This document shows, in pieces, positions 16,042-41,524 of a stretch of 64,000 nt of DNA (the first letter of the stretch is position 1; each line of letters begins with the position of its first letter). The stretch spans positions 43,141-107,140 of the forward strand of contig NZ_BOOH01000011.1 in assembly GCF_016863135.1 (NCBI RefSeq). The letters are read 5' to 3'. The position numbers were made by a program, and so were the translations under genes. The notes under the pieces were generated by a model. It did no database searches and was not told the origin of the DNA. It was given only the letters and a program-made list of their open reading frames with translations. The DNA is from Planobispora longispora. Its GTDB lineage: Bacteria; Actinomycetota; Actinomycetes; Streptosporangiales; Streptosporangiaceae.

Positions 16042-16113
16042 GCGCTCGGGCGAAGGGGGCGTGCTCCGGCGAACGAGGGTGTGCTCAGGCGGAACGGGAG
16101 CGCGCTCAGGCGA
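16042..16113. repeat. four degenerate ~19-bp tandem repeats (GYGYGCTCNGGCGAAGG) abutting the P450 stop codon
   Basis: gcgcgctcgggcgaaggggg / cgtgctccggcgaacgaggg / tgtgctcaggcggaacggga / gcgcgctcaggcgaagacg. The last unit contains the P450 TGA (minus strand). Confidence 0.45.
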
Positions 16114-19100
16114 AGACGTCCTGCTGGTAGCGGCCCTCGGCCTCCAGCCCGCGCAGCCACGCCTCGCCGTCCCCGCCGGTCCTGCTCTCGTAGATCCCGG
16201 CCAGGGCGCGCCGTACGGCCGGCGCCATCCGCAGCCCGTCCCCGCACACGTACACGTGCGCCCCGCGCTCCAGCAGCTCCCACACCCGGTCGGCCTCGGC
16301 GGCCACCGCGTCCTGCACGAACCGGAACCGGTGCCCCGGGACCGCGGAGAACGCGGTGTGCACCCGGGCGACCCCGTCGCGCTCCCAGCCCTCCAGCTCC
16401 CTCCGGTACAGCCAGTCGTGGCCGGGGTGGCGGCAGCCGGTGAAGACCTCGGCCGGGCCGCTCGCCCCCGACAGCGCCCGGTCCTCCAGGAAGCCGCGGA
16501 GCGGGGCGAAGCCGGTGCCGGGGCCGATGAGGATCACCGGGACGGCCGGGTCGCCGGGCAGCCGGAACGGGGGAGCCGGGACGCGGACGTAGCCGTAGAA
16601 CACCTCGCCGGGCGCCAGGCCCGCCAGGTAGGCCGAGCACGTGCCGCGGTACTCGCCGGCGCCGGACCAGGCGGGGCCCTCCACCAGCCCGACGGTGATC
16701 CGCACCGTCCCCGGATCGGCCAGCGGCGAGGAGGAGATCGAGTAGTAGCGCGGCCGGATCGGCCCCGTCATCTCCAGGAAGAGCGGGAGCGGCAGCGTGA
16801 TCGCGGGGAAGCGCTCCAGCAGGGCGAGCACGGAGACCCGCTTGGTCAGGATCTCCTCGGCGTAGTCGAGTGCGGCGAGCTGCCCGCGGGTCCACGGGCA
16901 CTCGGTGTGCGCGGCGAGCGTCTCCAGGTCGGAGCGGGTGGCCACGTCCTGCAGCTCGGCGAACTCGGCCAGCAGCAGCCCGGCCGTGACCGGGGTGTCC
17001 GTCGGCAGGTGGGTGGCGCCCCGGGCGCGCAGCCGTACCACCCGGTCGCGGGGGACGCGCAGGCAGCGCAGCGCCCACTCCACCAGCTCCGGGTCGTTCT
17101 TGGCGAAGACCGCCAGGTGGTCGCCGGCCGTGTAGGAGACGCCCTCGGGCAGCCTCGCCGTGATCGAGCGCACGCCCGCGCGGGGCGCCTCCAGGGAGAA
17201 GTCCCAGAGTCCGGCCGGGTCGCCGGTCAGCTCCTCACCGGCGATCACGGTCAGCGGGACGGCCCGGTCCGAGACGACGGCGGGCCGGACGTCGGCCTCG
17301 GTGAGGATCTCCATCTCGTAGCGCGGCCCGCCGCCTGCGTCGCCTCCGGAAGCCGCGCCGTACTCGGCGGCCAGCGCCGCCCACAGGGCCGAGGTCCAGG
17401 CGGTGACGTCGCCGTCGAGGTCGCCGTCGGCGTCGGCCTCCCCGCGCTCCACCAGCGGTACGGCCCCCGCCCCGGTGAGCTTGGCGAAGGCCCGCCGGGG
17501 GAACTCCTGGTAGCTGGGCCACTGGGTGTCGCCGCAGCCCAGCAGCGCCAGCCGTACCCCGTCCAGCGGCGGCAGCTCTTCCAGGGCGTCGAACGCCTGG
17601 GCGTTGTCGGGGGCCCTGCCGTTGTAGCTGGAGGCGACGATCACCAGGGGACCGCTCGCGGGCGGGGCGGCGGCCAGCTCGTCCAGGGTCGTCAGGGTGA
17701 CGGCGAACCCGGCCCGCCCGGCCCGCCCGGCCAGCCGCTCGGCGATGTCGGCGCAGGTGCCGAGGTTGGAACCGTAGGCGACGGTGAGGCCGGTCCCGGT
17801 GACGGCCATCTCCACCGGCTGCTCGTCGGCGGTCCGGCCCGCCCCGGTCTCTCCGGAGGCGTTCCTCTCGTACGGCATGCGCTCCCGGACCCGGAGCGTG
17901 AACCCCTCCGGCTTGAGGGTGAGGGTCTGCTTGACCTTGATCCGGTAGGCGTCCGGGTCGGAGATCGCGAACCGCTGGAGGACGAGCGCGAGGGCCAGAC
18001 GCGCCTCGGTCAGCGCGAACTGCCGTCCGATGCAGGCGCGCTCGCCGTTGCCGAACGGCTTGTAGGCCGCCGGGTGGTGCTCCTTCCTGCGCTCGGGGAG
18101 CCAGCGGTCGATGTCGAACTCCCCGGGCCGCTGCCACGCCTTCGGGTGCCGGTGCAGCGGGGGCAGGAGCACGACGGTCGTCTGCCCCTTGCGCACCGGG
18201 TAGCCGCCGATCTCGGTGTCCGCGAAGGGTTTGACGGCGAAGGCCGGGATGGGGGACCAGATCCGCAGCGTCTCCTCCAGGACGCGGGGGATCACGTCCA
18301 GCTTCATGATCGTCTCATAGGAGGGCGCGGCGTCGCCGGGCAGCAGCCGGTCGACCTCGGCGTAGGCGCGGGCGAGCACGTGCGGGTTGCGCAGCAGGTT
18401 GTACAGGGCGAAGGAGAGCAGGCCGCTGGTGGTCTCGTGTCCGGCGATCAGGAAGGTCAGGACCTGGTTGCGGATGTTCTCGTCCGGCAGCCGCCGTCCG
18501 GTCTTCGGGTCGGCGGCCCCCAGCATCAGGCCGAGCAGGTCCCTGGTCGAGGTGTCGCCCGCGGCGCGCCGCTGCCGGATGACGTCGTCCACCAGGTCCT
18601 GCATGGCCCGGATGTCGGCCCGGTAGGCGGCCTCCTGCTTCTTCATCATCCTGGTGACCAGGGGGAGCCGCCGGTTGCGGAGCATCGCCTCGGTCAGGGC
18701 GCGCCCCATCGCCTGCAGGAACGGGTGGAGCTCGGGCGAGGCGAAGGAGTCGAACCGGTAGTCGAAGCCGGTCAGCGAGATCGTGTCCAGGGTGAGCCTG
18801 GTCATGTCGTCGGAGACGGGCAGGTCCTCGCCCTGCCTGCGCTCCCAGGACGCGACGAGCTGCCGGGCCACCTCCAGCATCTGCGGGAAGTACGCCTTCA
18901 TGGAGCGCTGGCTGAAGGCGGGCATCAGGATGCGGTGCGCCTGGCCCCAGACCGGCTCGTTGCCGCGGGCGGTGAACAGCCCGTCGCCGCCGAAGTCGCG
19001 GACGATGGACAGCGGCGGGTCGATGCCCTTGTAGAAGCGCGTCTCGTCGCAGACCTCGGCGACCAGGTCGGGGTCGTAGACGAACAGCACCCTGCGGCCG

Positions 19101-19243
19101 AGGATCTCCAGCTGGTAGACGCCCTCCTCGTGCTCCGCGGCGAGCCCGTCGAGGAACTCGTTGGGGGAGTGGGCCGGTATCTGCAGGGTGTTGCCGAGAA
19201 CGGGCAGGCCCCGCGGGGCGGGCACGGAACGAGTCGCGGACAT
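16106..19243 (-). CDS. self-sufficient cytochrome P450 (CYP102/P450-BM3-like: P450 heme domain fused to FMN flavodoxin and FAD/NADPH reductase domains)
   Basis: Heme motif FGNGERACIGRQF and I-helix AGHETTS. The diflavin reductase half carries flavodoxin and FAD/NADPH-binding motifs (RYYSISSS, GPGTGFAPLRGF). ATG at 19243 is preceded by GAGGAG. Product is 1,046 aa; BM3 is 1,049 aa. Confidence 0.9.
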   Translation of the reverse strand: MSATRSVPAPRGLPVLGNTLQIPAHSPNEFLDGLAAEHEEGVYQLEILGRRVLFVYDPDLVAEVCDETRFYKGIDPPLSIVRDFGGDGLFTARGNEPVWGQAHRILMPAFSQRSMKAYFPQMLEVARQLVASWERRQGEDLPVSDDMTRLTLDTISLTGFDYRFDSFASPELHPFLQAMGRALTEAMLRNRRLPLVTRMMKKQEAAYRADIRAMQDLVDDVIRQRRAAGDTSTRDLLGLMLGAADPKTGRRLPDENIRNQVLTFLIAGHETTSGLLSFALYNLLRNPHVLARAYAEVDRLLPGDAAPSYETIMKLDVIPRVLEETLRIWSPIPAFAVKPFADTEIGGYPVRKGQTTVVLLPPLHRHPKAWQRPGEFDIDRWLPERRKEHHPAAYKPFGNGERACIGRQFALTEARLALALVLQRFAISDPDAYRIKVKQTLTLKPEGFTLRVRERMPYERNASGETGAGRTADEQPVEMAVTGTGLTVAYGSNLGTCADIAERLAGRAGRAGFAVTLTTLDELAAAPPASGPLVIVASSYNGRAPDNAQAFDALEELPPLDGVRLALLGCGDTQWPSYQEFPRRAFAKLTGAGAVPLVERGEADADGDLDGDVTAWTSALWAALAAEYGAASGGDAGGGPRYEMEILTEADVRPAVVSDRAVPLTVIAGEELTGDPAGLWDFSLEAPRAGVRSITARLPEGVSYTAGDHLAVFAKNDPELVEWALRCLRVPRDRVVRLRARGATHLPTDTPVTAGLLLAEFAELQDVATRSDLETLAAHTECPWTRGQLAALDYAEEILTKRVSVLALLERFPAITLPLPLFLEMTGPIRPRYYSISSSPLADPGTVRITVGLVEGPAWSGAGEYRGTCSAYLAGLAPGEVFYGYVRVPAPPFRLPGDPAVPVILIGPGTGFAPLRGFLEDRALSGASGPAEVFTGCRHPGHDWLYRRELEGWERDGVARVHTAFSAVPGHRFRFVQDAVAAEADRVWELLERGAHVYVCGDGLRMAPAVRRALAGIYESRTGGDGEAWLRGLEAEGRYQQDVFA

Positions 19244-19275
19244 GGGAACTCCTCGCATCCCGTGGCCGGTGACCT

Positions 19276-19328
19276 CCGTACGGCACCGGCCATACACCGT
19301 ATGGCAGTAGCTACCATACGGCGTATGG
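19276..19328. promoter_or_regulatory. operator array in the P450/TetR divergent intergenic region
   Basis: CCGTACGG (19276-19283); CCATAC-acc-GTATGG (19290-19304); CCATAC-ggc-GTATGG (19314-19328). The two 15-bp palindromes are 24 bp apart centre to centre. The second overlaps the TetR ATG (19325). Confidence 0.55.
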
Positions 19329-19900
19329 CCGTGAGTGCGCGCAGGGGGGAGCCCCTGACGCTTGAGGAGATCTGCGCGACCGCCCTGCGGATGATCGACG
19401 CGGGCGGGGTGGACAGCCTGTCCATGCGCAAGCTCGCCGCCGAGCTCGACGTCAACCCGATGTCGCTCTACCACCACGTGGACAGCAAGACCGCGCTCCT
19501 GCAGCAGGTCTGCTCCATGGTGGCGCTCCGGCTCCGGCTGCCCGCCGACGACGGCACCCCGTGGCGGGACCAGCTGCGCGCCCTGGGATACGCCTACCGC
19601 TCCATCGCGCAGCGGCACCCCTCGCTCTGGCTGTACGTGCAGTCCCACCCGGAGGCGCTCAAGCACGACTACCTGCTGTGGGACGTGCTCAACCGGATCC
19701 TGGTCGCCGCCGGGGTCCCGCCGGAGCGGCTGGCCCACACCCGCAAGGCGCTGTTCACCTTCGTCTCCGGCTTCGTCTTCGCCGAGTGCGCCGGGATCCT
19801 CGCCGAGCAGGACGGCCCCGGAGGCGCCGCCGACGTCGACGACACCTTCGAGGTCGCCGTGGACCTCATCATCGCGGGCCTGTCGGCGGCCCGCCCCTGA
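19325..19900 (+). CDS. TetR-family transcriptional regulator (divergent from P450)
   Basis: TLEEICATALRMIDAGGVDSLSMRKLAAELDVNPMSLYHHV is a TetR HTH, followed by a TetR_C-like ligand domain. Confidence 0.8.
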   Translation: MAVSARRGEPLTLEEICATALRMIDAGGVDSLSMRKLAAELDVNPMSLYHHVDSKTALLQQVCSMVALRLRLPADDGTPWRDQLRALGYAYRSIAQRHPSLWLYVQSHPEALKHDYLLWDVLNRILVAAGVPPERLAHTRKALFTFVSGFVFAECAGILAEQDGPGGAADVDDTFEVAVDLIIAGLSAARP

Positions 19901-19981
19901 CGGGCCGCTCCATCCGCTCGTGAAGGTCCGCTCGCGGTCCGCTCGGGGGAGTCCGCTGAGAGTCCGGTCCAGAGAGGCCGG

Positions 19982-21292
19982 TCAGCCCTCGTCGCCGAAC
20001 CAGTTGCCGTGGAAGCCGGCGGGCACCCGGCGCGGCAGCCGCACCGCCGCCACCTGCTCCAGGGAGGCGGCGTCCAGCACCTTCAGCTCCGAGTCGTCCC
20101 CGGCGCTGACGACGGACATCAGCCAGCCGTCGTCCTCGGCCCGCGCGCCCTCCGCGGGCACGTACACGGCCTCCCCGGTCGTGCCGCCGGTCTCCTTGAC
20201 CCGGCCGGAGCCCGTGACCGTGTCGTACTTGACGATCGCGTCGCCGGTCACCGCGTAGAGGTAGCGGTTGGCCAGGCCGGTGCGGTCCCCGTTGAGGCTG
20301 GGGAACTCCACGTCCCGGTCGTCGAGCTGCTCCTCCTTGGCGGTCGCGCCGAGGGTCCAGCGGTACAGGGGCGCGCCGCCGAGCTCGGCGGCCGAGGCGG
20401 CCGGATCGAGATCCCCGCTGATCTCGCCCCAGATCCGCCGGAACGAGCCGGCGGAGTAGCGCACCGCGTCCAGCACGACCTGGCCCTCGTCGTCCTCGTG
20501 GGCGTTGCCGACGTGGAAGACGTAGCACGGGTCGATCTCGTGCCAGCGCACCTTCCCGCCGTCGCCGCCGTCGCGGCGCATGACGCCGAGCCGCGCGCCG
20601 TAGCCTTCGTCCCACCGGTACGGCATGGCGCCGCTCATGGCCGTCTCCAGGTCGAAGACCACCGGCAGGTCCAGCCAGACGACGTGGTTCTCGGTGATCG
20701 CGAAGTCGTGGATCATCGTCGGCCCGGGGACCTCGATCTCCCGGCTCTCGACCAGCTCGCCGTCCGCCGACAGCCGGTGGTAGGTGAGGTACGGCGGGGC
20801 GAAGCCGTACCCGAAGAAGAGCAGCTCCCCGGTCGCGGGGTCCTCCTTCGGGTGCGCGGTCATGGCGGTGGTGAGCCTGCCGCCGAAGTCGTGCGGGCCG
20901 AGGGTCTCCAGCTCCGGGCTGATCTCGTACGGCAGGCCGTTCTCGACCAGGGCGAGGATCCGGCCGGAGTGCCGGATCACGTGGGTGTTGGCGCTGACGG
21001 CGGCCAGGTCGAAGCCCTTGTCGGAGATGAACGGGGCGTCGTCGGTGAAGGCGGTGGTCTTCGTCCACCGGTTCCGGTACCACTCGGCGCGGCCCTCGCG
21101 CAGCCGGACGCCGTGGAGCATGCCGTGCCCCAGGAACCAGTGGCCGGGGTCCTGGCCGGGCAGCGGGTTGGGGCCGTTGCGGAAGTAGCGGCCGGTCAGT
21201 TCGGCGGGCAGTTCGCCGGTCACCGACAGGTCGGCGACGCTGATCTCGTCGGGGACGGGTGCGAAGTGCCCTTGCAGATAAGCGGGGGTCAT
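19982..21292 (-). CDS. carotenoid-cleavage oxygenase (RPE65/CCO family)
   Basis: Family-typical blocks FRNGPNP, HWFLGHGMLHG, HDFAITENHVVWLDLP and FHGNWF, including conserved His ligands. Alternative ATG at 21307. Confidence 0.8.
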   Translation of the reverse strand: MTPAYLQGHFAPVPDEISVADLSVTGELPAELTGRYFRNGPNPLPGQDPGHWFLGHGMLHGVRLREGRAEWYRNRWTKTTAFTDDAPFISDKGFDLAAVSANTHVIRHSGRILALVENGLPYEISPELETLGPHDFGGRLTTAMTAHPKEDPATGELLFFGYGFAPPYLTYHRLSADGELVESREIEVPGPTMIHDFAITENHVVWLDLPVVFDLETAMSGAMPYRWDEGYGARLGVMRRDGGDGGKVRWHEIDPCYVFHVGNAHEDDEGQVVLDAVRYSAGSFRRIWGEISGDLDPAASAAELGGAPLYRWTLGATAKEEQLDDRDVEFPSLNGDRTGLANRYLYAVTGDAIVKYDTVTGSGRVKETGGTTGEAVYVPAEGARAEDDGWLMSVVSAGDDSELKVLDAASLEQVAAVRLPRRVPAGFHGNWFGDEG

Positions 21293-21315
21293 GAGCCCTC
21301 CCAACATTCCAGTTG

Positions 21316-21354
21316 TGACATGTCAAAAGTAGAACGTTCATTGATGACATGTCA
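21316..21354. promoter_or_regulatory. two copies of the perfect palindrome TGACATGTCA in the CCO/PadR divergent promoter region
   Basis: TGACATGTCA at 21316-21325 and 21345-21354. It contains an ACATGT core like known PadR-family operators (ATGT-n-ACAT type). Confidence 0.55.
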
Positions 21355-21377
21355 ATCGAGGAATCTAAGATGACCTC

Positions 21378-21947
21378 ATGAGCCTCCGTCACGCGGTGCT
21401 CGGGCTCCTCACCGAGGGCCCGGCCAGCGGCTACGACCTGCTGAAAGTCTTCGAGGTCTCGCTCGCCAACGTCTGGCCCGCCACCCAGAGCCAGCTCTAC
21501 GGCGAACTCGGCCGGCTGGCCGACGCCGGGCTGATCGAGGTCGTGGCCGAAGGCCCGCGCGGCCGCAAGGAGTACGGGCTGACCGACGCGGGCCTGACGG
21601 AGCTGCGCCGCTGGCTGATCGAGGTCGAGCCCGAGTCGTTCCGCCGCACCGACATGCTGCTGCGGGTGTTCTTCCTCGGCGTCGTCCGGCCCGAGGAGGC
21701 CCGGGCATACCTGCAGGAGCAGGGCACGGTGGCGGCCCGCGCCCGTGAGGACCTGGAGGAGATCCGCTCGGCCGCCGAGAAGGGCGACCTGGGGAACACG
21801 CCCCTGGCGGTCTACGGCCGCATCGCCCTCGAATGGGGACTGCGCTTCACCGTCATGCAGCGGGAGTGGGCCGAGTGGGCCGCCCGCCAGATCGACCAGA
21901 TCGAGGAGCAGAACAGCGTCGGCGCCTCCCGCCAGGATCTGCCCTGA
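21378..21947 (+). CDS. PadR-family transcriptional regulator
   Basis: LRHAVLGLLTEGPASGYDLLKVFEVSLANVWPATQSQLYGELGRLADAGLI is a PadR winged-helix motif. Confidence 0.85.
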   Translation: MSLRHAVLGLLTEGPASGYDLLKVFEVSLANVWPATQSQLYGELGRLADAGLIEVVAEGPRGRKEYGLTDAGLTELRRWLIEVEPESFRRTDMLLRVFFLGVVRPEEARAYLQEQGTVAARAREDLEEIRSAAEKGDLGNTPLAVYGRIALEWGLRFTVMQREWAEWAARQIDQIEEQNSVGASRQDLP

Positions 21948-21985: not shown

Positions 21986-22879
21986 TCAGGCGAGGACGCG
22001 GCCGACCACGCGGGCGTACATCCGGCCCGGGCTGGGCACCGAGGGCGGGGTGAGGAAGCCGGGGAGCATGGGGAGGTCCACGGCGAAGGGCTGCAGGCGC
22101 TCGTAGAGCGCCTCGACCCCGGCGGGGCGCCGGTCGGGATTCTTCTCCAGCAGGTCGGCGAGGAGACGGTTCAGCTCGGCGGGGACGCCGGGCACCGGCG
22201 GCGGGCGCTCCTTCACCTGCCGCTCGAACACGGCGTACTCGGTGGGGCCGGTGAACAGCTGCCTGCCGGTGAGCATCTCGTGGATCATGCAGCCCAGGGC
22301 GTACAGGTCGCTGCGCGGCCCGGCCAGGCCCCGCTGGATCTGCTCGGGCGCCATGTAGGACGGGGTGCCCAGGAGCTGGCCGATCCGGGTGAACCGGGTG
22401 GAGTCGGCCTCCCGGAGCATCGCCAGGCCGAAGTCCAGGACCTTGACGCTGCCGTCGGGGCAGAGCATCAGGTTGGTCGGCTTGAGGTCGCGGTGGTAGA
22501 TGGACAGCGCGTGGGCGGCCGAGAGCACCGCGCAGGCCTGGGCCGCGATCGCGGCGGCCCACGGCACCGGGAGCGGGCCGTGCTCGCTGACCAGGTCGGC
22601 CACGGTGACGCCCTCGATGAACTGCATCACCTGGAACAGGCGCTGGTCGAAGGTGCCGAAGTCGTACAGGACCGGGGCGCCGGGGTGCTCCAGCCGGGCC
22701 AGGATGCGGGCCTCGCGCATGAAGCGCCGCTCCAGCTCCTCGTCGGGGCCGGTGAGCAGGCGCATGATCTTGACGGCCACCCGGCGGTCGAGGTGTTTGT
22801 CATGACCGGCGTAGACCGCGCCCATCCCGCCCTGCCCCAGAGGGAGGTCGTCGAGAACGTAGCGGTCGCCGATGACCAT
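21986..22879 (-). CDS. Ser/Thr protein kinase, kinase domain only (297 aa)
   Basis: Gly loop LGQGGMGAVY, Lys in VAVKIM, catalytic loop HRDLKPTNLM, DFG (LDFGLA) and APE (SYMAPE). No sensor or TM domains. Starts 24 bp after the MTase stop. Confidence 0.85.
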   Translation of the reverse strand: MVIGDRYVLDDLPLGQGGMGAVYAGHDKHLDRRVAVKIMRLLTGPDEELERRFMREARILARLEHPGAPVLYDFGTFDQRLFQVMQFIEGVTVADLVSEHGPLPVPWAAAIAAQACAVLSAAHALSIYHRDLKPTNLMLCPDGSVKVLDFGLAMLREADSTRFTRIGQLLGTPSYMAPEQIQRGLAGPRSDLYALGCMIHEMLTGRQLFTGPTEYAVFERQVKERPPPVPGVPAELNRLLADLLEKNPDRRPAGVEALYERLQPFAVDLPMLPGFLTPPSVPSPGRMYARVVGRVLA

Positions 22880-22903
22880 CGACCCTCCCTGGACCCGTGG
22901 GCA

Positions 22904-24889
22904 CTAACCCCCCTGGCCGCACGGTCTCAGATGGCCGTCGGCCAGTCCATCAAAGCCTAGCCGGATCAAGGTCTCGCCCAGTGCCGCCGTCTCGCGCAAC
23001 CGGTCCTCCATCGCGGCCAGTTCCCGGAACGCCTCGCCGTAGCGCCGCTGCTCGGCCACCGGCAGCACCGGCACCCGGGCCCGGCGCACGTCGAGCCGGC
23101 TGGAGCTGGAATGCACGCGCGAGGAGTCCGCGGAGCGGAGGAACCCGGCGAGGAAGTGCGGGTCGAGCCGCTCCGGGTCCACCCGGTAGAGGGTGAGCTG
23201 CGGCCCGAGCGCGGCGCCGGCTTCGGCCACGGAGTCGGCGACCACCCGGACCGCGCCCAGGACGGTGGTCACGATGTCACCCGGGCCGACCATGACCAGG
23301 GCCGGGTCGGGAACGGTCCCGCCGGAGGGCGGCGTTCCCGCGGCGGCGTCCTCGGCCGTCAGGACCGGGACGGGCCCGGAGTCGGCGGTCAGCTTCGACG
23401 GGGCCGCCAGGATGGTGACCAGCCCCGCCTTGACCAGCTCGCCGACCGTCGTGGTGGGCAGCTCCTGCCGTTCGGTCAGCGTCTCCAGCTCCGGAGGGGA
23501 CTTCGGCAGCGCGGCCGACGCCTCCCGGAAGCGGTCGAGGGCGGCGGTGAAGTCGCGGGCGAAGTCCATCCCGCCCTGCTGCGGGCGGTGCCGCCCCGTG
23601 GCGAGGTCCACCTCGTCGTCGAGCAGGTCGATGATCCGCACGGTACGGCTGTCGCCGGTCAGCTCGGCCTCGGGATCCGCGGTGAAGGCGCGCCAGGCCG
23701 GTTCCACGACCGACAGGTCCTCACCGGCGTCCACCATCAGGACCTGCGACGGGGGCCGCTCGCCGGCCGGGCGGCGCAGCAGCCACAGGTCGGGGCCGCC
23801 CGGTCCCAGGGAGATCACCGCGCGGAGCGCCCCGGCCCGCAGCAGGTTTCCCCGGATCCGCTTGCCGGGGCGGCGGCTGGCCGCCGCGGCGGGCATCAGG
23901 ATCGCCACCAGGCCGCCCGGCCGCACGTGGGCCAGGCAGTGCTGCACCCAGGCGAGCTCCGGCTCGCTGCGCGGCGGCAGGCCGTACTCCCAGCGGGAGT
24001 CGCCGGTCAGCTCGTCGTAGCCCCAGGCCCGCTCGTTGAACGGCGGGTCGCAGAGCACCGCGTCGGCGAGGGCGCCGGCCAGGCCGTCCTCACGGAGCGA
24101 GTCTCCGGCCACGATCCGGGCCGGCGCCCCGCGCAGCAGCAGCCGCACCGCGGTGAGCAGGGCGTTCGTCTCACTGAGTTCCTGGCCGAGCGGGGTGTTC
24201 GCGCCCAGCAGGAGGGTGCCGACCCCGCAGGCGGGGTCCAGCACGGCGCCGCCGCCGGCCAGGCGCGTCATGAGCGCGGCCACGTCGTCCCTGGTGACCG
24301 AGAGCTGGCGGGAGTGCACCTCGACGTAGCGGGCGCAGAGGAACTCGAACGCGTCCAGCGGCCCGTTCTCCCGGGCCAGCCGGGAGACCAGCCGGAGCAG
24401 CGCGGGGTCGTGCGGCCGGAGGTCGGGCGCGCGCGGCAGGTCGGCCGTGGTGGCCGCCACCAGTGTGGCGAGGGAGGGCGCGTCGCGGTCGCCAGAGGAG
24501 CGGGAGCCGTCCCCGACGGGGGAGGGCCAGATGCGGCGGTCGCCGGAGAGCACCCGCGGGCCGTGCTCGCGCCAGCTCTCGGGGTCGCGGTGGAGGGAGA
24601 GCAGGAAGACGCCGACCTGTCCGACCAACTCGCCCAGGCGCAGGTCGTCGACCGCGGTCCGCATCCGCTGCCAGACTAGGTCGCCGAGGGAGACTTCGAA
24701 GGACTTGCCGTTGCCGCGCAGCCACGCGGTGACCTCGGACAGGGAGAAGAGGGGGCTGGAGGCGGTTCCGCCGATCGGCTGGGGGAAGTCATCGTGACGG
24801 CGGCGCCAGTTGCTCACCGCCGCCCGGCCGACATCGGCGAACCGGGCGATGTCGCCCGCGTTCACGGTGATCTCCTGGCTCTCCTCCAT
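22904..24889 (-). CDS. N6-adenine DNA methyltransferase fused to an N-terminal HTH and a C-terminal HsdS-like target-recognition domain (M-S fusion; no nuclease domain)
   Basis: Motif I VLDPACGVGTLL and motif IV LCDPPFNERAWGY (gamma-class DPPF). N-terminal HTH DIARFADVGRAAVSNWRRR. C-terminal TRD ends with ...VPVLPVAEQRRYGEAFRE, the HsdS-like conserved tail. An alternative GTG start at ~24865 has a better RBS (AGGAG). Confidence 0.8.
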   Translation of the reverse strand: MEESQEITVNAGDIARFADVGRAAVSNWRRRHDDFPQPIGGTASSPLFSLSEVTAWLRGNGKSFEVSLGDLVWQRMRTAVDDLRLGELVGQVGVFLLSLHRDPESWREHGPRVLSGDRRIWPSPVGDGSRSSGDRDAPSLATLVAATTADLPRAPDLRPHDPALLRLVSRLARENGPLDAFEFLCARYVEVHSRQLSVTRDDVAALMTRLAGGGAVLDPACGVGTLLLGANTPLGQELSETNALLTAVRLLLRGAPARIVAGDSLREDGLAGALADAVLCDPPFNERAWGYDELTGDSRWEYGLPPRSEPELAWVQHCLAHVRPGGLVAILMPAAAASRRPGKRIRGNLLRAGALRAVISLGPGGPDLWLLRRPAGERPPSQVLMVDAGEDLSVVEPAWRAFTADPEAELTGDSRTVRIIDLLDDEVDLATGRHRPQQGGMDFARDFTAALDRFREASAALPKSPPELETLTERQELPTTTVGELVKAGLVTILAAPSKLTADSGPVPVLTAEDAAAGTPPSGGTVPDPALVMVGPGDIVTTVLGAVRVVADSVAEAGAALGPQLTLYRVDPERLDPHFLAGFLRSADSSRVHSSSSRLDVRRARVPVLPVAEQRRYGEAFRELAAMEDRLRETAALGETLIRLGFDGLADGHLRPCGQGG

Positions 24890-24896
24890 ACTCGGT

Positions 24897-24913
24897 CACA
24901 GTAGTTGACTGTG
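24897..24913. promoter_or_regulatory. palindrome CACAGT-agttg-ACTGTG immediately upstream of the MTase start codon
   Basis: Read directly from the sequence. It sits 8 nt from the MTase ATG in the MTase/PP2C divergent region. Confidence 0.4.
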
Positions 24914-24973
24914 CTGAAATGGTCTACAGCCCGTTTGCTTGTGAAGTGCTTCAACCAGTGCTTTACTGCCTTC

Positions 24974-25771
24974 ATGGCACAAAACGAAGGACTGGCACTG
25001 CGCTACGCCGCCCGCTCCGACGTCGGGGTCCGCCGTGAGGCGAACGAGGACTCGGGCTACGCGAGCGCCCGCCTGCTCGCCGTCGCCGACGGCATGGGCG
25101 GCCACGCCGGGGGCGAGATCGCCAGCTCGCTCGCCGTCGCCGCCGTGGCAGCGCTGGACGACAGTCTTCCGAATACCGGTGTCGACCTCAAGGCCGCGCT
25201 GAAAGGCCTGGCCAAGGACATCAACCAGGCGTTGCGCGACACGGCCGAGCGGGAGCCCGCGCTGCGCGGGATGGGCACCACCCTCACCGCGATGCTCTGG
25301 GACGGCGACATGTTCGCCCTGGCCCACGTCGGCGACTCCCGTGCCTACATGCTGCGCGACGGCGCCCTCTACCAGATCACTCACGACCACACCCTCGTCC
25401 AGTCGCTGGTGGACGACGGGCGGATCACCCCCGAGCAGGCGGCCGAGCACCCGCGCCGGTCGATGGTCCTCCGCGTGCTGGAGGGCACCGGCGACGGCGA
25501 GCTCGACCTGACCCTCCGCGAGGCCCAGCCGGGCGACCGCTACCTCATCTGCTCCGACGGCCTGACCGCCGTCGTCGGCCCGGAGACCCTCTTCAACACC
25601 CTCACCGAGATCGACGAGCCCGACGAGGTCGCCCGCTGGCTGATCGACCTGGCCAACCGGGGCGGCGGCCCCGACAACATCACCTGCATCGTGGCCGACT
25701 TCGGCGCGCACGACGCGGGCGCGGAGCGGTTCGTCGTCGGCGCCGCGACGGAGCGCAAGCTCACCCCCTGA
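24974..25771 (+). CDS. PP2C-family Ser/Thr phosphatase (paralogue 1)
   Basis: LRYAARSDVGVRREANEDS, AVADGMGGHAGGEIAS, GMGTTLT and DGxxD...GGPDNITC are PP2C motifs. No obvious SD sequence. Confidence 0.85.
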   Translation: MAQNEGLALRYAARSDVGVRREANEDSGYASARLLAVADGMGGHAGGEIASSLAVAAVAALDDSLPNTGVDLKAALKGLAKDINQALRDTAEREPALRGMGTTLTAMLWDGDMFALAHVGDSRAYMLRDGALYQITHDHTLVQSLVDDGRITPEQAAEHPRRSMVLRVLEGTGDGELDLTLREAQPGDRYLICSDGLTAVVGPETLFNTLTEIDEPDEVARWLIDLANRGGGPDNITCIVADFGAHDAGAERFVVGAATERKLTP

Positions 25772-25817: not shown

Positions 25818-28800
25818 TCAGGCCTCCCGGGCGGGCAGCCGGTGGTGACGGCCGTTCTCCGGGATGCCGGACAGGCGGTCGGCGGCCTGCTCGATGGCGG
25901 TGCCGACCCGGTCGGCCAGCAGGCCGACCGCGCCGACGGCCCGGGTCACCGGGTCGTCTTCGGCGCCGCCGAGCGCCCTGGCCCGCACATAGGCGGCCTT
26001 CACCTCCGCCCACCGCTCGGCCTGCCCGGCGGTGAGCCTGCCGCGCAGCTCGGCCAGCTTCAGCAGGTTGGCCTCGGTCCCGGACGTGAGGGTCTGGGCC
26101 TCGCCGAGATAGTGATCGTCGATGACGGCCTCCAGCTCGTCGTCGTTCATCACCGGCACGACCCGCGCGGCCAGCTTGGTCATGTTCCGGTAGGACCCCT
26201 GGAGCTGGAACGGCGGCTCGGTCCTGGCGGCGTCGGACTGGGCGGCCGAGGCGATGTAGGCCCGGTTGACGGTCAGCACCACCCGCTGGACGCGGAGCAG
26301 CTTGCGCAGCACTGCGAGGACCTGCTCCAGCTCCACCTGCGAGTACGGGTGGGAGAGCCGGTCGGCGCGGACGGCGGGATCGCCCTGCGCGAGCCGTACC
26401 AGCAGGCGTACGTCGTCGCGCTCCCGGGTGGACAGCGGGGCGAGGACCGGGTTGGAGGTCAGCGCCGTGTCGATGTAGCTCAGCGCGAACAGCTCCTCCC
26501 GGCCCGAGAGCACGTCGCCGAGGTTCCAGACGTCGGCGCGGTTGGCGAGCATGTCGGGGACGCGGAACCGGCTGCCCGACTCGGTGTACGGATTGCCCGC
26601 CATGCAGACCGCGAAGCGCTTGCCGCGCAGGTCGTAGGTGCGGGCCCGGCCCTCCCAGACGCCCTCCACGCGGCGCTGGGCGTCGCACAGCGAGATGAAC
26701 TTCTGCAGCAGCTCGGGGGAGGTGTGCTGGATGTCGTCGAGGTACAGCAGCACGTTGGAGCCCATCTCCAGGGCGAAGTTGATCTTCTCGACCTCCTGGC
26801 GCGCGGTCGCGTCGGGGGCGTCGGCCGGGTCGAGCGAGGTGACCCTGTGGCCCAGCGCCGGGCCGTCCACCTTCACGAACATCAGGCCGAGGCGGTCGGC
26901 GACGTACTCCATCAGCGTCGTCTTGCCGTAGCCGGGCGGTGAGATGAGCAGCAGCAGGCCCATCTGGTCGGTCCGCTCGGCCGCGCCGGTCGCGCCCAGC
27001 TGCTTGGCCAGGTTGTCGCCGATGAGGGGGAGGTAGACCTCGTCGAGGAGCTGGTTGCGGACGAAGGCGCTCATCACCTTCGGCCGGTACTCCTCCAGGC
27101 GCAGCCGCTCGCGCTCGGCGGCGACCAGGGCGTCGCGCCGCTTCAGGTAGGACCGGTAGGCCGGCGCCCGGCGGGTCCCGAACTCCCGGGTCCTGGCGAG
27201 GAACTCGTCCAGGCGGATCGCGAGCCGGCCGCCGGCGATGCGCGGGTGCGTGCCGAGCAGGCCCTCGACGGTCGCGGTCAGCGCGGCCGACGAGTCGTGC
27301 CGGGGCAGCTCGCACAGCCGTACGGCCACCGCCTCGGGCAGCTCGCGGAGCTCGCGGAGCTCGGGCGAGCGCCCGAACGCGCCCAGCCACGCCTCGGCCA
27401 GCCGGTGCCGCCCCGGCAGGTCGCCCTCCAGGGCCCGCAGGTCGTTCTCGAACTCCTGACCCGGAGCCCCCGGGCCCCGCGAGCTCCGCGAGCTCCGCAG
27501 CGCCCGCTCGAAGCGGTCGAGCAGCGTCCTGGCCCCGACGCTCGTCACGAATCCGGGCGGGTCGCCGGCCAGTTCCTCGAACAGGTACTCCCCGGCGAGC
27601 TCGATATCGCCCTCGCCGTACGGCGCCGGCGCGCCGTCCGATCCGGGCGCGCCGCGCAACGCGGACACGAAGGACCCGACGGCGCGGGACAGGGCCCGGC
27701 AGGTCTCCCCGACCGCCTCCACCCGCCCGAACAGGGACCGCGCCCGCGCCAGCGAGGCCGCCTTCGTGGTCCACGACGCGCGGGCCGCCTCGTCGGTCCC
27801 GTGCGCCCAGAACAGCTGGGCGGCGGCCCGCGCGGACGGGGGATAGCGCAGCAGGCCCGCCCCCGCGTGCAGGCGGAGCAGGGCGCGGAGGATCAGCGCG
27901 GCGTCGTGGTCGTGGACGCCGCGCTCGTAGCCCTCGTCGTAGCGGGTCTCCGCCACCCCGCGGACGATCTCCGGCAGTTCCCCCCCGGCCGGCGCCGCCT
28001 CGTGGAGCGCGGTGAGCGAGATCGCCCTGTCGCCCAGGAGCAGCGTCCCGGCCTCGGCGGCGGCCAGGATCGAGGCGGCGAGGTGCTCGCCGCGGTAGAC
28101 CTCCGGCGACTCCGAGACCAGCAGCTGGGTCCAGAAGGGCCTGGTCGCCGCGAAATCGGGGTCCCGGACGGGGGAGCGGTAGCCGGTCCCGGTGACGGCG
28201 AAGGCCATCCCGTCCCCGTGCGGGACCAGCGTCAGATCGGCGGGCCGGGTGGTGACCGCGAACCGGTGCCGGCCCAGCCGGATGGTCTCGCCGCCGTCGG
28301 CGTACAGGTCGAGCCGGTCGCGCAGGGCACGGCCCGCCTCCTGCCGGGCCGCGGCGATCCGGCCGTCCAGCTCCTCGGCGCGCACCTGGTCGCCCAGCGC
28401 GCGCAGCTCCCCGGCCACGGAGCGCAGCTTGGCCACCATCGGGTCGGCGGCGAAGTAGGTGTTGACCTCGTCGAGCGAGCCCAGCGAGGCCAGGCGGCGG
28501 CGCACGCTCGCCAGGATCCGGGCCGCGGAGGAGGCCAGCCGGTCGGCGCGGCGGGCCCGATCGTCCAGCAGGGCCTGGCGGCGGGAGGAGAACGCCTCGT
28601 AGACGTCCTCCCGCTTGGAGGCGAGCCGGGCGAGGAAGTCGTCGAACTCGGCGAAGCGCGACTCCAGTGTCTCCAGCCGGAGCATCAGCCGGCCGAGCTG
28701 CTCCTCGCACCGCTCGGGGGTGTCGGCCACGGCCAGCGCCCCGGTGATCGCCTGCCCCAGCAGGGCGAACTCGGCGGCGAAGGCCGCGCGGCCCTCGGAG

Positions 28801-30920
28801 CCCAGCAGTTCCCGCCGCCGCGCCTCCAGCGTGGCCCGGGCCCGGTTGATCCCGCCGAGCACCGCGCCGACCCGCTCCAGGATCGCGGTGCGCACGGTCG
28901 CGTCGGCGATGTCGAGCGTGCCGACCACCTCGATCACGACTTCCAGGCCCTGGGACTGCCCGGCCAGCCGCTCGCCGAGCGGGCCGGCCCCGGCCGTGGC
29001 GGTGATGGCCCCGGCCTCGGCGACCAGCCGCTCGATCTCGGCGTGGTAGCCGGCGAAGGCGTCCTCGCCCTGGAGGAAGGCCACGGCCCGCCGCGCCGTG
29101 CCCGTCAGCTCGGACTCCAGCTCGGCGTCGATCCGGTCGATCCGACCGAGGTCCGCGTAGCGCAGCTCGCGCAGGGTCACCAGGCGTCCCCGCGCCCTGC
29201 GGAGCTCGGCGAGGCGGTCCACCCACCCCTGGGCGGAGCGGGGCGCCGCGGCCCGCGCCCGCCGTACGAGGGAGGCGGTCTCCTGCGCCGCCTCCTCCAG
29301 GGCGGCCGCCGCCTGGGCGGTGAGCGACTGGACCTTCTCGAACTCCTCCAGCACCTGCTCGGCCGTGGCCCGCACGTCGGCCAGCGGCCCGCTCAGCTCG
29401 TGCTCGCCCAGCCAGTGATAGTGGTCGGACACGCGGACGCAGGCCGCGATCAACGCCTCGAAGACGGGGACCGAGGGCGCCATCTCCTCGACGGCCGCGG
29501 TCACCGACAGGCAGTCGGAGATCCCGCGCACCAGCTCGGCGTTGCCGATCCGCTCCAGCGGGCCGGTCCCCACCGGCTGGGCCGCGGCGTAGACGTCGGA
29601 GGTGTACGGCGTCTGCCACACCTGCATCGGGTGGACCCGGGCGGGCTCCTCCGAGACGGCCCGGAACACCACCAGCGTCCCGTCGTCGAACAACGAGTAG
29701 CCGTGGCAGGGGATCGGCGTGGCGACCTGCTTGCGGATCACGTTGTACGGCAGCAGCAGCGACCGGCCGTCGGAGCGGGCGTGGAACACGTACAGCACGT
29801 CCTCGCCGTTGGCCGAGCGGATGACCCGCTCGAACTCCAGGCCGGCGACGTCGGTGTCGAAGGTCTTGCTCACCCCGGTGGACAGGTGGTAGCCGCCGGG
29901 GAAGATGATCCCCTGGTCCTCGGGGAGCCGCCGGCAGGCCTGGCCGATGCCGTCCAGCCGCACGACGTCCTTGGTCCGGGTGTTGAAGACCAGGTGCCGC
30001 CAGCCGGTCTCGTTGTAGGGCCGGACGCGCAGCAGGATCAGCGGGCCGACCCGGGCGTGCAGCACCTCGGCGTCGGCGAGGCTCTGCAGCGGCTCGGCCA
30101 CCGGCTCGCGGTAGACGCCCTCTCCGGTCTCGGTGTTGTTCTCGATCTTGATGGTGAGGTCGCCGCCGACGGTCTCGACGAACACCTCGCCCTGGATCGA
30201 GATGTGCGGGTGCCGCCCGAGGACGTGGTCGTCGCGGGTGGTCGCGGTCCACTCGAAGTCGTGGGACGGCGGGAACACGTGGTCGCGCTCGCCCCGGTCG
30301 TCGATGTAGGCCAGCGAGCCGTCCGCGCCGACCTGCCAGCGCAGCACCCTGATGTCCTGCGGGCCGGTCCGGAAGACGGCCAGCATCTTGCCCTCGACGC
30401 GGCGCAGCTGCAGCAGCCGGGTGTCGCGGTAGTAGCGGTAGAGCTCGGCGAAGTCCTCCTCGAACCGCGGGTCCCGGACCATCGGCGCGGGCTCGAACCG
30501 GAAGGCGTCGCCGTCCCGGCTGAAGCGGTGCGCGGAGAAGACGTCCTCGACGGTCGTCTCCGGCTTCAGCCCGATGAACACGTTGTAGCCGAACAGCATG
30601 AGGTCGCCGATCGACACGATGTCGCGGGGCACGCAGTTGTTCTCGGTGCGGATCCGCTCGGCGCCGATCAGGCGGAGCTCGGTCCCGCCGAACGCCTCCA
30701 GGCGGCGGGCGTTGAGCGTCTCGGCCCGCCGGGCCAGCTCCGCCGCCTGCTCGGCGAGCCGGGCGCGGAGCACCTCGTAGGTGCCCGCGTCCAGCCCCTG
30801 CCCCGCCCCGTCCAGCCGCTGCTCCGTCCCGTCCGGCGCAGTCGTCCCGGTCGTCGCAGTCGTTCCGGTCGTCCCGGTCTCTGCGGTGGTCACGTCCGTG
30901 CTGGTCACGTCTGGGGTCAC
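25818..30920 (-). CDS. giant (~1,700-aa) protein: low-complexity Thr/Gly N-terminus, large coiled-coil/helical middle, C-terminal AAA+ (MoxR/dynein-like AAA_5) ATPase module
   Basis: Walker A LLISPPGYGKTTL, Walker B VLLYLDDIQ and sensor-1 CMAGNP. Long Ala/Arg/Glu/Leu-rich heptad-like stretches. GTG start overlaps the flotillin stop (GTGA). Confidence 0.8.
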   Translation of the reverse strand: MTPDVTSTDVTTAETGTTGTTATTGTTAPDGTEQRLDGAGQGLDAGTYEVLRARLAEQAAELARRAETLNARRLEAFGGTELRLIGAERIRTENNCVPRDIVSIGDLMLFGYNVFIGLKPETTVEDVFSAHRFSRDGDAFRFEPAPMVRDPRFEEDFAELYRYYRDTRLLQLRRVEGKMLAVFRTGPQDIRVLRWQVGADGSLAYIDDRGERDHVFPPSHDFEWTATTRDDHVLGRHPHISIQGEVFVETVGGDLTIKIENNTETGEGVYREPVAEPLQSLADAEVLHARVGPLILLRVRPYNETGWRHLVFNTRTKDVVRLDGIGQACRRLPEDQGIIFPGGYHLSTGVSKTFDTDVAGLEFERVIRSANGEDVLYVFHARSDGRSLLLPYNVIRKQVATPIPCHGYSLFDDGTLVVFRAVSEEPARVHPMQVWQTPYTSDVYAAAQPVGTGPLERIGNAELVRGISDCLSVTAAVEEMAPSVPVFEALIAACVRVSDHYHWLGEHELSGPLADVRATAEQVLEEFEKVQSLTAQAAAALEEAAQETASLVRRARAAAPRSAQGWVDRLAELRRARGRLVTLRELRYADLGRIDRIDAELESELTGTARRAVAFLQGEDAFAGYHAEIERLVAEAGAITATAGAGPLGERLAGQSQGLEVVIEVVGTLDIADATVRTAILERVGAVLGGINRARATLEARRRELLGSEGRAAFAAEFALLGQAITGALAVADTPERCEEQLGRLMLRLETLESRFAEFDDFLARLASKREDVYEAFSSRRQALLDDRARRADRLASSAARILASVRRRLASLGSLDEVNTYFAADPMVAKLRSVAGELRALGDQVRAEELDGRIAAARQEAGRALRDRLDLYADGGETIRLGRHRFAVTTRPADLTLVPHGDGMAFAVTGTGYRSPVRDPDFAATRPFWTQLLVSESPEVYRGEHLAASILAAAEAGTLLLGDRAISLTALHEAAPAGGELPEIVRGVAETRYDEGYERGVHDHDAALILRALLRLHAGAGLLRYPPSARAAAQLFWAHGTDEAARASWTTKAASLARARSLFGRVEAVGETCRALSRAVGSFVSALRGAPGSDGAPAPYGEGDIELAGEYLFEELAGDPPGFVTSVGARTLLDRFERALRSSRSSRGPGAPGQEFENDLRALEGDLPGRHRLAEAWLGAFGRSPELRELRELPEAVAVRLCELPRHDSSAALTATVEGLLGTHPRIAGGRLAIRLDEFLARTREFGTRRAPAYRSYLKRRDALVAAERERLRLEEYRPKVMSAFVRNQLLDEVYLPLIGDNLAKQLGATGAAERTDQMGLLLLISPPGYGKTTLMEYVADRLGLMFVKVDGPALGHRVTSLDPADAPDATARQEVEKINFALEMGSNVLLYLDDIQHTSPELLQKFISLCDAQRRVEGVWEGRARTYDLRGKRFAVCMAGNPYTESGSRFRVPDMLANRADVWNLGDVLSGREELFALSYIDTALTSNPVLAPLSTRERDDVRLLVRLAQGDPAVRADRLSHPYSQVELEQVLAVLRKLLRVQRVVLTVNRAYIASAAQSDAARTEPPFQLQGSYRNMTKLAARVVPVMNDDELEAVIDDHYLGEAQTLTSGTEANLLKLAELRGRLTAGQAERWAEVKAAYVRARALGGAEDDPVTRAVGAVGLLADRVGTAIEQAADRLSGIPENGRHHRLPAREA

Positions 30921-33085: not shown

Positions 33086-33097
33086 GGATTCCCTCGG

Positions 33098-34010: not shown

Positions 34011-34066
34011 CGCCCGGGCGGGGACGGGGCGGGCGGGGCGTCGGGGCGCGGACGGGCGCGCGGGTG

Positions 34067-41509: not shown

Positions 41510-41524
41510 TACTATCGCCCCGCG

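Follow-up and report, generated by a model that had tools for sequence, protein, structure and literature searches.

A PP2C phosphatase, an HTH-methyltransferase and a short Hanks-type kinase form a conserved actinomycete cassette with a possible origin in a defence module

What can a DNA adenine methyltransferase (MTase) do when its gene is followed by a small Ser/Thr kinase and no restriction endonuclease? The question is raised by a locus of Planobispora longispora, analysed here within a window of 64,000 nucleotides (64 kb, GC around 73%) of the 8.8-Mb genome. A sequence-only reading had described the locus as a two-gene pair; it is actually a triad, as a divergent PP2C phosphatase gene and a conserved 31-bp control element had been overlooked. 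The locus is a three-gene cassette in which an 84-bp control region separates the PP2C gene, read in one direction, from the HTH-MTase-TRD gene and the short Hanks kinase gene, read in the other. Its features are the following:

21986-22879, minus strand: kinase-domain-only Hanks-type Ser/Thr kinase, 297 aa (Pkinase, 7.8e-46; catalytic motifs intact)
22904-24889, minus strand: HTH, HsdM-like N6-adenine DNA methyltransferase and single HsdS-like TRD with a C-terminal coiled-coil helix, 661 aa
24704-24889, minus strand: putative N-terminal HTH of the MTase, residues 1-62 (identity, invariant columns, weak MerR/AlpA/mad1 matches)
23690-24409, minus strand: HsdM-like catalytic region, residues ~161-400 (motif I VLDPACGVG, motif IV CDPPFN)
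22922-23464, minus strand: single HsdS-like TRD and long conserved helix, residues 476-656 (HsdS profile match, identity)
24890-24973, no strand: intergenic, divergent control region between PP2C and MTase, 84 bp, AT-richer
24938-24968, plus strand: 31-bp conserved element CTTGTGAAGTGCTTCAACCAGTGCTTTACTG, ending 5 nt before the PP2C ATG
24974-25771, plus strand: divergent PP2C-type Ser/Thr phosphatase, 265 aa (Pfam PP2C_2, PP2C)

The MTase and kinase reading frames are real coding genes, with GC3 of 0.95 and 0.97 and GC2 of 0.54 and 0.45, respectively. The translated MTase contains motif I (VLDPACGVGTLL), motif IV (CDPPFN) and the PVAEQRRYGEAF stretch. Its N6_Mtase catalytic domain has an HsdM-type fold and carries motif I along with a motif IV of the (N/D)PP(F/Y) form. 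Both fold and profile matches lead to DNA adenine MTases, while the curated HsdM equivalog TIGR00497 is not reached (15.2 bits vs a cut-off of 242.75). Of the 78 family members, nearly all have (D/N)PPF as motif IV, and a few have an altered form (CHPPF, CAPPFG, CDPPAH). At the other end of the protein, a profile built from the last 226 residues (436-661) matches the Type I HsdS chains 5ybb_D and 3okg_A (E=3e-7) across both TRD repeats of each, including the P-L-x-EQRR motif, and the description of this region as an HsdS-like TRD therefore holds. This dedicated profile against PDB sequences is the one confirmation of the TRD, as Pfam Methylase_S has 0 matches in 48 family members; weak matches to the PADLOC Specificity_I models are also found. 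The TRD had been said to end in PVAEQRRYGEAF, which is indeed present but does not close the protein, since around 45 further residues follow and make a long C-terminal helix in the AF2 model, where a beta-rich domain precedes a helix at 611-651. The TRD is conserved family-wide (identity of 55% inside the clade of the window and 43% across clades), with no hypervariability or diversification in that clade and a dN/dS of 0.28 for the MTase including the TRD, a rough value at a genome GC3 near 0.95.

The N-terminal region is the most conserved MTase domain, with a mean identity of 79% inside the clade and 72% to other clades, and 25 columns invariant in 28 diverse members. Its assignment as an HTH is weaker than that of the other domains: the matches are to PADLOC mad1 (9e-5), the MerR-like CarA N-terminal domain 2jml (0.021) and AlpA 8c3t (0.049), and Pfam HTH_17 picks up just 4 of 48 members, with E values of 0.027 or worse. 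The AF2 model gives a beta-alpha-alpha-beta-alpha arrangement, a secondary structure compatible with an HTH of the MerR, excisionase or AlpA type. The proposed fusion of HTH, MTase and TRD in one chain is thus supported by motif I, CDPPFN and the HsdS chain matches, and less strongly on the side of the HTH. A Rosetta-stone check of 270 family proteins found no fusion of the MTase with a kinase or a phosphatase.

The kinase gene agrees with its earlier description as well. The Pkinase domain spans residues 14-258 with no second domain, the kinase ATG lies exactly 24 nt after the MTase stop codon and is preceded at 6 nt by its own RBS, GGGAGGG, and the two genes are probably co-transcribed. The motifs expected of an active Hanks-type Ser/Thr kinase (G-loop GQGGMGAV, VAVK, HRDLKPTN, DFG and APE) are all found and are conserved across the clade, where orthologues are 74-92% identical. 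On the upstream side of the MTase, 84 bp away, the divergent partner gene begins at ATG 24974 rather than TTG 24905, as every aligned locus keeps the CAT/ATG and the sequence ahead of it has non-triplet indels; the public assembly likewise annotates a protein of 265 aa. It matches PP2C_2 (2.2e-16) and PP2C (1.3e-11) in Pfam, has the motifs ADGMGGH, GDSR, SDG and GGPDN of the PP2C fold and metal-binding site, and scores 217 bits with the NCBIfam Stp1/IreP PP2C model, slightly short of the 230-bit cut-off. The catalytic motifs are intact in all three enzymes of the cassette.

The control region between the two divergent genes is conserved on both sides. On the MTase side a TANNNT sequence (TACTGT) is kept 8 nt ahead of the MTase ATG, while the PP2C side carries the 31-bp element, whose consensus over an alignment of 46 distinct instances is CTTGTGAAnTnnnTCAACCAnTGnTTTnnTG. 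The element is single-copy in the window (expected by chance 0.02), occurs once per PP2C-bearing locus and in none of the loci of other type, and is restricted to the PP2C/MTase intergenic position in around 48 genomes; in an independent metagenome scan, all 11 of 11 element-bearing contigs place it between PP2C and HTH-MTase. Inspection by eye suggests a promoter-like layout with a -35-like TTGTGA, 17 nt, TGn plus TTTACT and 6 nt to the PP2C ATG, which makes the element a candidate promoter plus operator and the PP2C transcript apparently leaderless. This promoter reading is by eye only, because a strict sigma-70 consensus and terminator scan called no promoter in the control region. Alternatively, the element may serve some other regulator, or be no more than a promoter of unusual conservation. 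Rfam gave nothing at threshold for the locus and the whole window, and its sole sub-threshold match, NiCo inside the kinase ORF (E=0.064), was taken as chance.

Is this arrangement peculiar to Planobispora? A relative is found in at least 586 species genomes, and among the best 80 of these the kinase lies directly downstream in 73 loci, a divergent PP2C gene is present in 50, and both occur together in 49. The pairing of MTase and kinase, for which the sequence-only reading had proposed to search in other genomes, is thus conserved and non-accidental, and the PP2C gene and the 31-bp element are the defining features of the clade of the window. This PP2C-bearing clade is monophyletic and ranges over Streptosporangiaceae and Pseudonocardiaceae, with a tree order that follows taxonomy (the Planobispora/Streptosporangium group, Sphaerisporangium, Microbispora, Nonomuraea, then Amycolatopsis). 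The flanks are housekeeping genes that vary by genus (prfC, PadR, carotenoid oxygenase, MCM-MeaB, ABC transporters, FtsK), the locus does not stand out in base composition, and the clade is under purifying selection, with a dN/dS of 0.13 for the kinase that is as rough as the MTase value at this GC3. The family is essentially absent from plasmid and phage collections, the exception being a distant member (29% identity) on a Dietzia plasmid, adjoining Type I R-M. The clade of the window is thus inherited along taxonomy, unlike a mobile defence system. An upstream cluster of a DUF3686-AAA+ gene, flotillin, NfeD and a second PP2C (25818-34834) was considered as part of the system and rejected, since only Planobispora and Streptosporangium have it next to the cassette and the other ~40 loci of the clade do not.

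The sister clades have different surroundings. There, the MTase-kinase pair lies within DISARM-like DrmA-DrmB-DrmC...UvrD loci or adjoins Type I R-M; in the DISARM-like loci of Micromonospora, Frankia and Planotetraspora it directly follows DrmA-DrmB-DrmC(PLD) and precedes a UvrD-like helicase, and DrmA, DrmB and UvrD-like genes were found in the sister-clade loci L054 (Micromonospora), L064, L076 and L079. The pair thus has a real evolutionary link to methylation-based defence. The kinase differs too, being 294-303 aa in the clade of the window and 480-550 aa with a TPR domain, likely a sensor, in other clades; the TPR domain kept by the relatives in defence islands has been lost here. Since the sister clades sit in defence loci and its own clade does not, we read the window as holding a defence-associated MTase-kinase module in a derived, restriction-less form, a chromosomally fixed branch of a large actinomycete HTH-MTase/kinase family.

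The statement that no restriction endonuclease is present can be extended. Neither the immediate neighbours nor the other ORFs scanned in the window encode a nuclease, helicase, DISARM, BREX or Type I R subunit, and tblastn with the DrmA, DrmB and UvrD-like proteins of related loci found nothing in these 64 kb. Around 50 loci of the PP2C clade have no DISARM-core or HsdR-type partner within 10 kb. The complete chromosome of Nonomuraea gerenzanensis has both the triad and the 31-bp element, and this species is not among the 40 best of 106 DrmA matches or the 60 best of 77 DrmB matches in the sequence collection that includes it. These data bear on the possibility that the cassette is the modification or regulatory arm of a restriction system whose nuclease/helicase core (DISARM DrmABC or Type I HsdR) lies elsewhere in the genome. 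We consider this unlikely; a separate HsdS, for its part, would be unnecessary because the TRD is fused to the MTase.

Among the closest known systems is the Type I R-M methylase (HsdM and HsdS), above all its non-canonical forms such as PacII M1M2S (PDB 7VS4) and half-HsdS, single-TRD subunits. As compared with Type I R-M, the cassette joins M to a single TRD in one polypeptide that also bears an N-terminal HTH, lacks HsdR and a separate two-TRD HsdS among the window ORFs scanned, has a conserved rather than variable TRD, and has a kinase and a phosphatase as partners. Nor is there an endonuclease domain fused N-terminally to the MTase-TRD, as a Type IIG/IIL (MmeI-like) enzyme would have. The likeness to DISARM comes from the sister-clade pairs that adjoin DrmA, DrmB and DrmC, whereas the window and the whole clade have no DrmA, DrmB, DrmC or UvrD nearby and the MTase is not of the canonical DrmMI type, with no PADLOC DrmMI model among its matches. 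A kinase is not known to belong to described DISARM, and a full-text literature search combining DISARM, DrmA, kinase and UvrD returned no paper.

BREX type 2, or Pgl, resembles the cassette as an actinomycete methylation-based system that pairs an adenine methylase with a Ser/Thr kinase. PglW has 1400-1600 aa and combines a NERD nuclease with pseudokinase, kinase and sensor domains (PMC12839542), whereas the kinase here has 297 aa and scores 44.8 bits against a PglW cut-off of 990. The MTase is HsdM-like rather than PglX-like, with no PglX match, and no PglZ, BrxC/PglY or BrxD was found in the ORFs scanned. The methylation-associated defence system MADS combines an HTH protein (Mad1), a methylase (Mad2) and a Hanks kinase (Mad6), and the cassette gives weak PADLOC matches to it (mad1 9e-5, mad2 1e-15, mad6 2.6e-65); here the HTH is fused to the adenine methylase, and no further mad genes matched among the neighbours. 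Membership in MADS was rejected on the NCBIfam cut-offs (MAD2 18.1 bits vs 720, MAD6 133.7 vs 460), and membership in BREX/Pgl and canonical HsdM was likewise rejected, every curated cut-off being missed. The distinction from PglX/PglW made by the sequence-only reading is thus borne out by a wide margin.

A further parallel is the TerY-P triad, in which vWA TerY, a PP2C and a Ser/Thr kinase form a phospho-switch add-on to restriction or DNA-processing systems, attached to diverse restriction systems and also stand-alone (PMC10542128). It provides a precedent for kinase and PP2C phospho-switch modules on restriction systems (PMC10542128). Both are three-gene modules in which a dedicated kinase and PP2C accompany a third protein, but here the latter is the HTH-MTase with no vWA gene, the kinase ends without a zinc-ribbon or OB-fold tail, and the PP2C gene is divergent and read from a conserved control element. 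Judged by these comparisons, the module differs from PglX/PglW, MADS and every other named system. Literature searches on DUF3686, DISARM with a kinase and UvrD, MADS, BREX-related systems and actinomycete methylomes turned up no account of the cassette; the DISARM-like variant with HTH-MTase, TPR-kinase and UvrD-like helicase seems undescribed too.

What would such a module do? Our tentative preference, held somewhat nearer to doubt than to belief, is for an orphan methylase that descends from a defence module and works as a phosphorylation-gated epigenetic or regulatory switch, and not for an active restriction system. In this scheme, the MTase, as a monomer or a dimer mediated by the TRD helix, would methylate adenine at one fixed motif of the host chromosome. 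The dedicated kinase and phosphatase would control phosphorylation of the MTase or of its HTH, which would in turn switch DNA binding or methylation on and off. The HTH may bind the 31-bp element, which would overlap the PP2C promoter and lie upstream of the MTase promoter, thus closing a feedback loop. That the kinase acts on the MTase and that the HTH recognises the element are both inferred. The fuller version, in which a defence-derived DNA MTase has been domesticated in two actinomycete orders as a kinase/PP2C-gated chromosomal epigenetic switch with HTH autoregulation through a 31-bp operator, is doubtful as a whole.

The main competitor is stand-alone minimal defence: methylation by the MTase would mark self DNA, and the kinase would act as a toxic or abortive-infection effector once unmethylated DNA, phage DNA or a phage protein sets it off, with the PP2C as a silencing antidote. 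A kinase/phosphatase pair has the logic of toxin and antidote, the sister-clade pairs reside in DISARM-like and Type I R-M islands, and kinase and PP2C modules are known defence add-ons with stand-alone TerY-P-like systems among them (PMC10542128). The kinase also matches PADLOC PD-T4-6 models at up to 1.7e-93; this involves the generic kinase domain only and appears generic for Hanks kinases, as PknB (259 bits), StpK7 and other kinase models match as well. The clade follows taxonomy between housekeeping flanks, shows strong purifying selection and a non-diversifying TRD, has lost the likely TPR sensor, and belongs to a family essentially absent from the plasmids and phages searched. Because of the triad, the non-mobile clade, the purifying selection, the stable TRD and the TPR loss, self-marking with a kinase abortive-infection arm, which the sequence-only reading had proposed for this copy, is possible but not favoured, and we regard stand-alone defence in general as rather improbable. 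Vertical inheritance is compatible with defence, and the surroundings of the sister clades are clearly those of defence systems; both observations count against the switch.

The MTase protein could, in another direction, be mainly a transcription factor or a non-DNA methylase, with the HTH on its operator, the MTase domain sensing SAM or modifying protein or RNA, and phosphorylation in control. The HTH is indeed the most conserved domain, the operator-like element is locus-specific and a few members have an altered motif IV, but motifs I and IV are kept by nearly all members, fold and profile comparisons point to DNA adenine MTases and to an HsdS TRD that reads DNA, and the TRD is under purifying selection. 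We thus consider this alternative very improbable.

Several defence systems that work by methylation have kinases, among them Pgl/BREX type 2, MADS and the TerY-P add-ons, which raises the question of the targets and purpose of these kinases. The cassette bears on it as the simplest version so far, reduced to a methylase, a phosphatase and a kinase with nothing but its kinase domain, and natural full versions on DISARM-like cores are available for comparison. Since the family offers both, the relationship between kinase and methylase is directly testable in vitro. If the phosphorylation-gated switch is true, the cassette would amount to a bacterial 'writer' under the control of reversible Ser/Thr phosphorylation, in a clade that includes antibiotic producers such as the Streptosporangiaceae and Amycolatopsis. 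If the MTase is a domesticated regulator, it would clearly exemplify the conversion of a defence module to phosphorylation-controlled epigenetic regulation.

In the window, whose G+C content is about 73%, real genes were picked out by a third-position GC filter, and two adjacent ORFs are clearly coding:

22904-24889, minus strand: HTH-MTase-TRD (661 aa, GC3 0.95)
21986-22879, minus strand: Ser/Thr kinase (297 aa, GC3 0.97)

All the strings that the sequence-only reading had quoted from these proteins are present in the translations. The kinase lies, as it had stated, 24 nt downstream with its own ribosome-binding site (GGGAGGG, 6 nt ahead of the ATG), and is indeed kinase-domain-only, being a bare Hanks domain with a complete set of catalytic motifs. 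Pfam Methylase_S has no match in 48 members of the MTase family, and a TRD profile (residues 436-661, 34 diverse members) matches two Type I HsdS chains (E=3e-7) in an alignment spanning both HsdS TRD repeats and the P-L-x-EQRR motif; in the structure model, the C-terminal part of the MTase forms a domain rich in beta strands and then a helix of 40 residues. The profile match and the modelled fold therefore bear out the claim of an HsdS-like TRD. The "excisionase-like" HTH held only in part: the N-terminal domain is real but only weakly classifiable, with matches to mad1 (9e-5), the MerR-like CarA N-terminal domain (0.021) and AlpA (0.049).

Missing from that account is a PP2C phosphatase gene divergent from the MTase. 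Three lines of evidence place its start at ATG 24974 and not at the TTG of the ORF scan, since all aligned loci share this ATG, upstream indels are not multiples of three, and the public assembly annotates a 265-aa gene. The control region between the two genes is 84 bp long and comparatively AT-rich, with TANNNT conserved 7-8 nt ahead of the MTase ATG. A perfect 6-bp inverted repeat, CACAGT-N5-ACTGTG (24897-24913), overlaps the MTase -10-like TACTGT and is conserved only in Planobispora and Streptosporangium.

Alignment of the intergenic regions reveals a 31-bp block that is near-invariant from Planobispora to Amycolatopsis, reads CTTGTGAAnTnnnTCAACCAnTGnTTTnnTG (consensus, PP2C direction) and ends 4-6 nt upstream of the PP2C ATG. 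Every PP2C-bearing locus has a single copy of it and the other loci have none; the window contains one copy, versus 0.02 expected by chance. An independent scan of metagenomes with a degenerate pattern (23 specified bases) gave 11 contigs; in all 11, the element separates an HTH-MTase from a divergent PP2C, and the kinase follows on every contig that extends far enough. By eye, the element resembles a promoter (TTGTGA, 17-nt spacer, TGn-TTTACT, 6 nt, ATG), so that the PP2C mRNA would be leaderless; a strict consensus promoter scan called no promoter there. Since TCAACCA within the spacer is invariant beyond the needs of a promoter, we suggest it as a candidate operator, and the co-conserved HTH of the MTase would be the obvious candidate binder of the element.

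The MTase, the kinase, the PP2C and this private control element are shown to be inherited as a unit. Full-length MTase homologues (55-89% identity, the best in Planobispora rosea) occur across Streptosporangiaceae; a library clustered at 50% identity contains 438 representatives (E<=1e-30), and scanning a single genome for each species found relatives in at least 586 genomes. The best 80 of these, fetched with 10-kb flanks, were searched by tblastn using the proteins of the window: 73 have the kinase on the same strand immediately after the MTase, 50 have a divergent PP2C, and 49 have both partners. The pairing noted from the sequence recurs in other genomes. All PP2C-bearing loci form one clade in a neighbour-joining MTase tree, with internal branching that mirrors taxonomy, and the flanks in Nonomuraea, Amycolatopsis and the window hold ordinary metabolic or housekeeping genes that differ from genus to genus.

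Some individual loci stand apart. In Actinoalloteichus caeruleus (L057, 9039-12862), PP2C, element and MTase are present with no detectable kinase, the sole such locus of the PP2C clade; a stretch of about 1 kb following the MTase there is unassigned. Two fetched loci carry near-identical intergenic elements and nest in the clades of other genera: L017 ('Nocardia aurea') in that of Nonomuraea, and L049 ('Streptomyces sp. MN03-5084-2B') in that of Amycolatopsis. This suggests either recent transfer or contigs that are mislabelled or contaminants. A few family members, e.g., P0059 of Thermocatellispora tengchongensis, have an altered motif IV (CHPPFN, CAPPFG, CDPPAH, CTPPFN) and may be catalytically dead methylases retained for another role.

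The other clades show defence contexts as the origin of the module. DISARM-like loci, in which DrmA (PADLOC E=1.7e-280) and DrmB (1.9e-69, MrfA Zn-binding domain) precede the MTase-kinase pair, occur in Micromonospora, Frankia, Planotetraspora and several MAGs. The ORF after DrmB has a PLD motif of HxK type and is read here as a putative DrmC, and a UvrD-like helicase comes after the pair. The fetched loci concerned are:

L054 3482-16021, L079 3155-16159, also L064, L076, L021, L036, L038, L080: DISARM-like variant, in the order DrmA, DrmB, DrmC-like PLD, HTH-MTase-TRD, TPR-tailed Ser/Thr kinase, UvrD-like helicase
L054 8838-9995: DrmC-like PLD ORF
L031 2434-12704, also L034, L046, L081: HTH-MTase member directly downstream of a complete Type I R-M system

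In Actinomadura and Spirillospora the pair is accompanied by a UvrD-like gene only, while in Thermoactinospora rubra, Sphaerimonospora and Acrocarpospora catenulata it follows a Type I HsdM/HsdR locus. The kinase is present in L031, L034 and L046; L081, the Dietzia plasmid pDK2035-69, where a 29%-identical MTase relative adjoins a complete Type I system, has an NYN-domain gene there and no kinase. The kinases of these other clades measure 480-550 aa and carry C-terminal TPR repeats, versus 294-303 aa in the window's clade. Both PP2C-type and defence-context copies occur in some genera and in one genome, Nonomuraea thailandensis.

Within the window's clade, there are signs pointing away from a typical defence system. 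The HTH is the most conserved MTase domain (mean identity 79% within the clade, 72% to other clades) and the TRD is not hypervariable (55% and 43%). Against eight close relatives, dN/dS, a rough measure in a genome as GC-rich as this one, is 0.28 for the MTase (TRD 0.28, HTH 0.21) and 0.13 for the kinase. Base composition at the locus shows no anomaly, homologues of DrmA, DrmB and UvrD are absent from the 64-kb window, and the MTase family is practically absent from the plasmid and phage collections. Judged from sequence, the adenine MTase, with a fixed-specificity TRD, as well as the kinase and the PP2C, are apparently active. The kinase and phosphatase would act on the MTase or its HTH, and the phosphorylation state would gate either methylation or binding to DNA; the HTH would feed back on the divergent promoter. 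The net result would be an orphan methylase under phosphorylation control, descended from a defence add-on.

In the main alternative reading, the cassette may still work as a defence system on its own, in which the kinase would be the effector and the PP2C the antidote. The TerY-P triad, a kinase, PP2C and third-protein switch found on many restriction systems and sometimes alone (PMC10542128), is alike in logic, as is PglX/PglW of BREX type 2 (PMC12839542). The latter likeness, proposed from the sequence together with a distinct architecture, stands as one of logic; membership of the TerY-P, PglX/PglW (BREX type 2) and MADS families fails every curated score. A restriction partner in trans is less likely: the complete N. 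gerenzanensis chromosome, found in the plasmid collection, carries the triad and is absent from the best 40 of 106 DrmA and the best 60 of 77 DrmB matches. A non-DNA role of the MTase is also less likely.

Beyond the cassette, the window contains the following features:

25818-34834, minus strand: four-gene cluster (PP2C, NfeD-like, flotillin/SPFH-like, DUF3686 giant, in that order)
34067-34834, minus strand: PP2C phosphatase of the cluster
about 33098-33750, minus strand: NfeD-like membrane protein
30917-33085, minus strand: 722-aa flotillin/SPFH-like coiled-coil protein, no Pfam match
25818-30920, minus strand: 1700-aa DUF3686 + DUF7902 + AAA+ giant, start overlapping the upstream stop
41818-42711, minus strand: HTH_31 + DUF5753 (Xre/WhiJ-like) regulator
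44032-47352, plus strand: SARP-type BTAD-NB-ARC-TPR regulator

The cluster keeps its order in Planobispora siamensis and Streptosporangium; it adjoins the cassette only in Planobispora and Streptosporangium and was therefore rejected as part of the unit. A full-text search returned no paper on DUF3686. The Xre/WhiJ-like regulator and three ORFs without Pfam match lie in a low-GC island (40500-43700, GC 0.57-0.65 versus about 0.72), adjoined by the SARP-type gene, and the island may have been acquired horizontally. On the other side, the stretch 16106-21947 contains a self-sufficient, BM3-like P450-flavodoxin-FAD/NAD reductase fusion of about 1291 aa, directly after it a carotenoid cleavage oxygenase of RPE65 type, and a PadR regulator of opposite orientation; in P. 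siamensis and one Streptosporangium, the kinase still has PadR and the oxygenase as neighbours.

Full-text literature searches returned no description of the cassette or of a kinase-containing DISARM-like variant, and PADLOC and NCBIfam offer no specific model for the cassette beyond a generic 'Type I MTase' profile. We place the cassette, as a variant, among the methylation systems that are coupled to Ser/Thr phosphorylation; it is unusually simple and directly testable.
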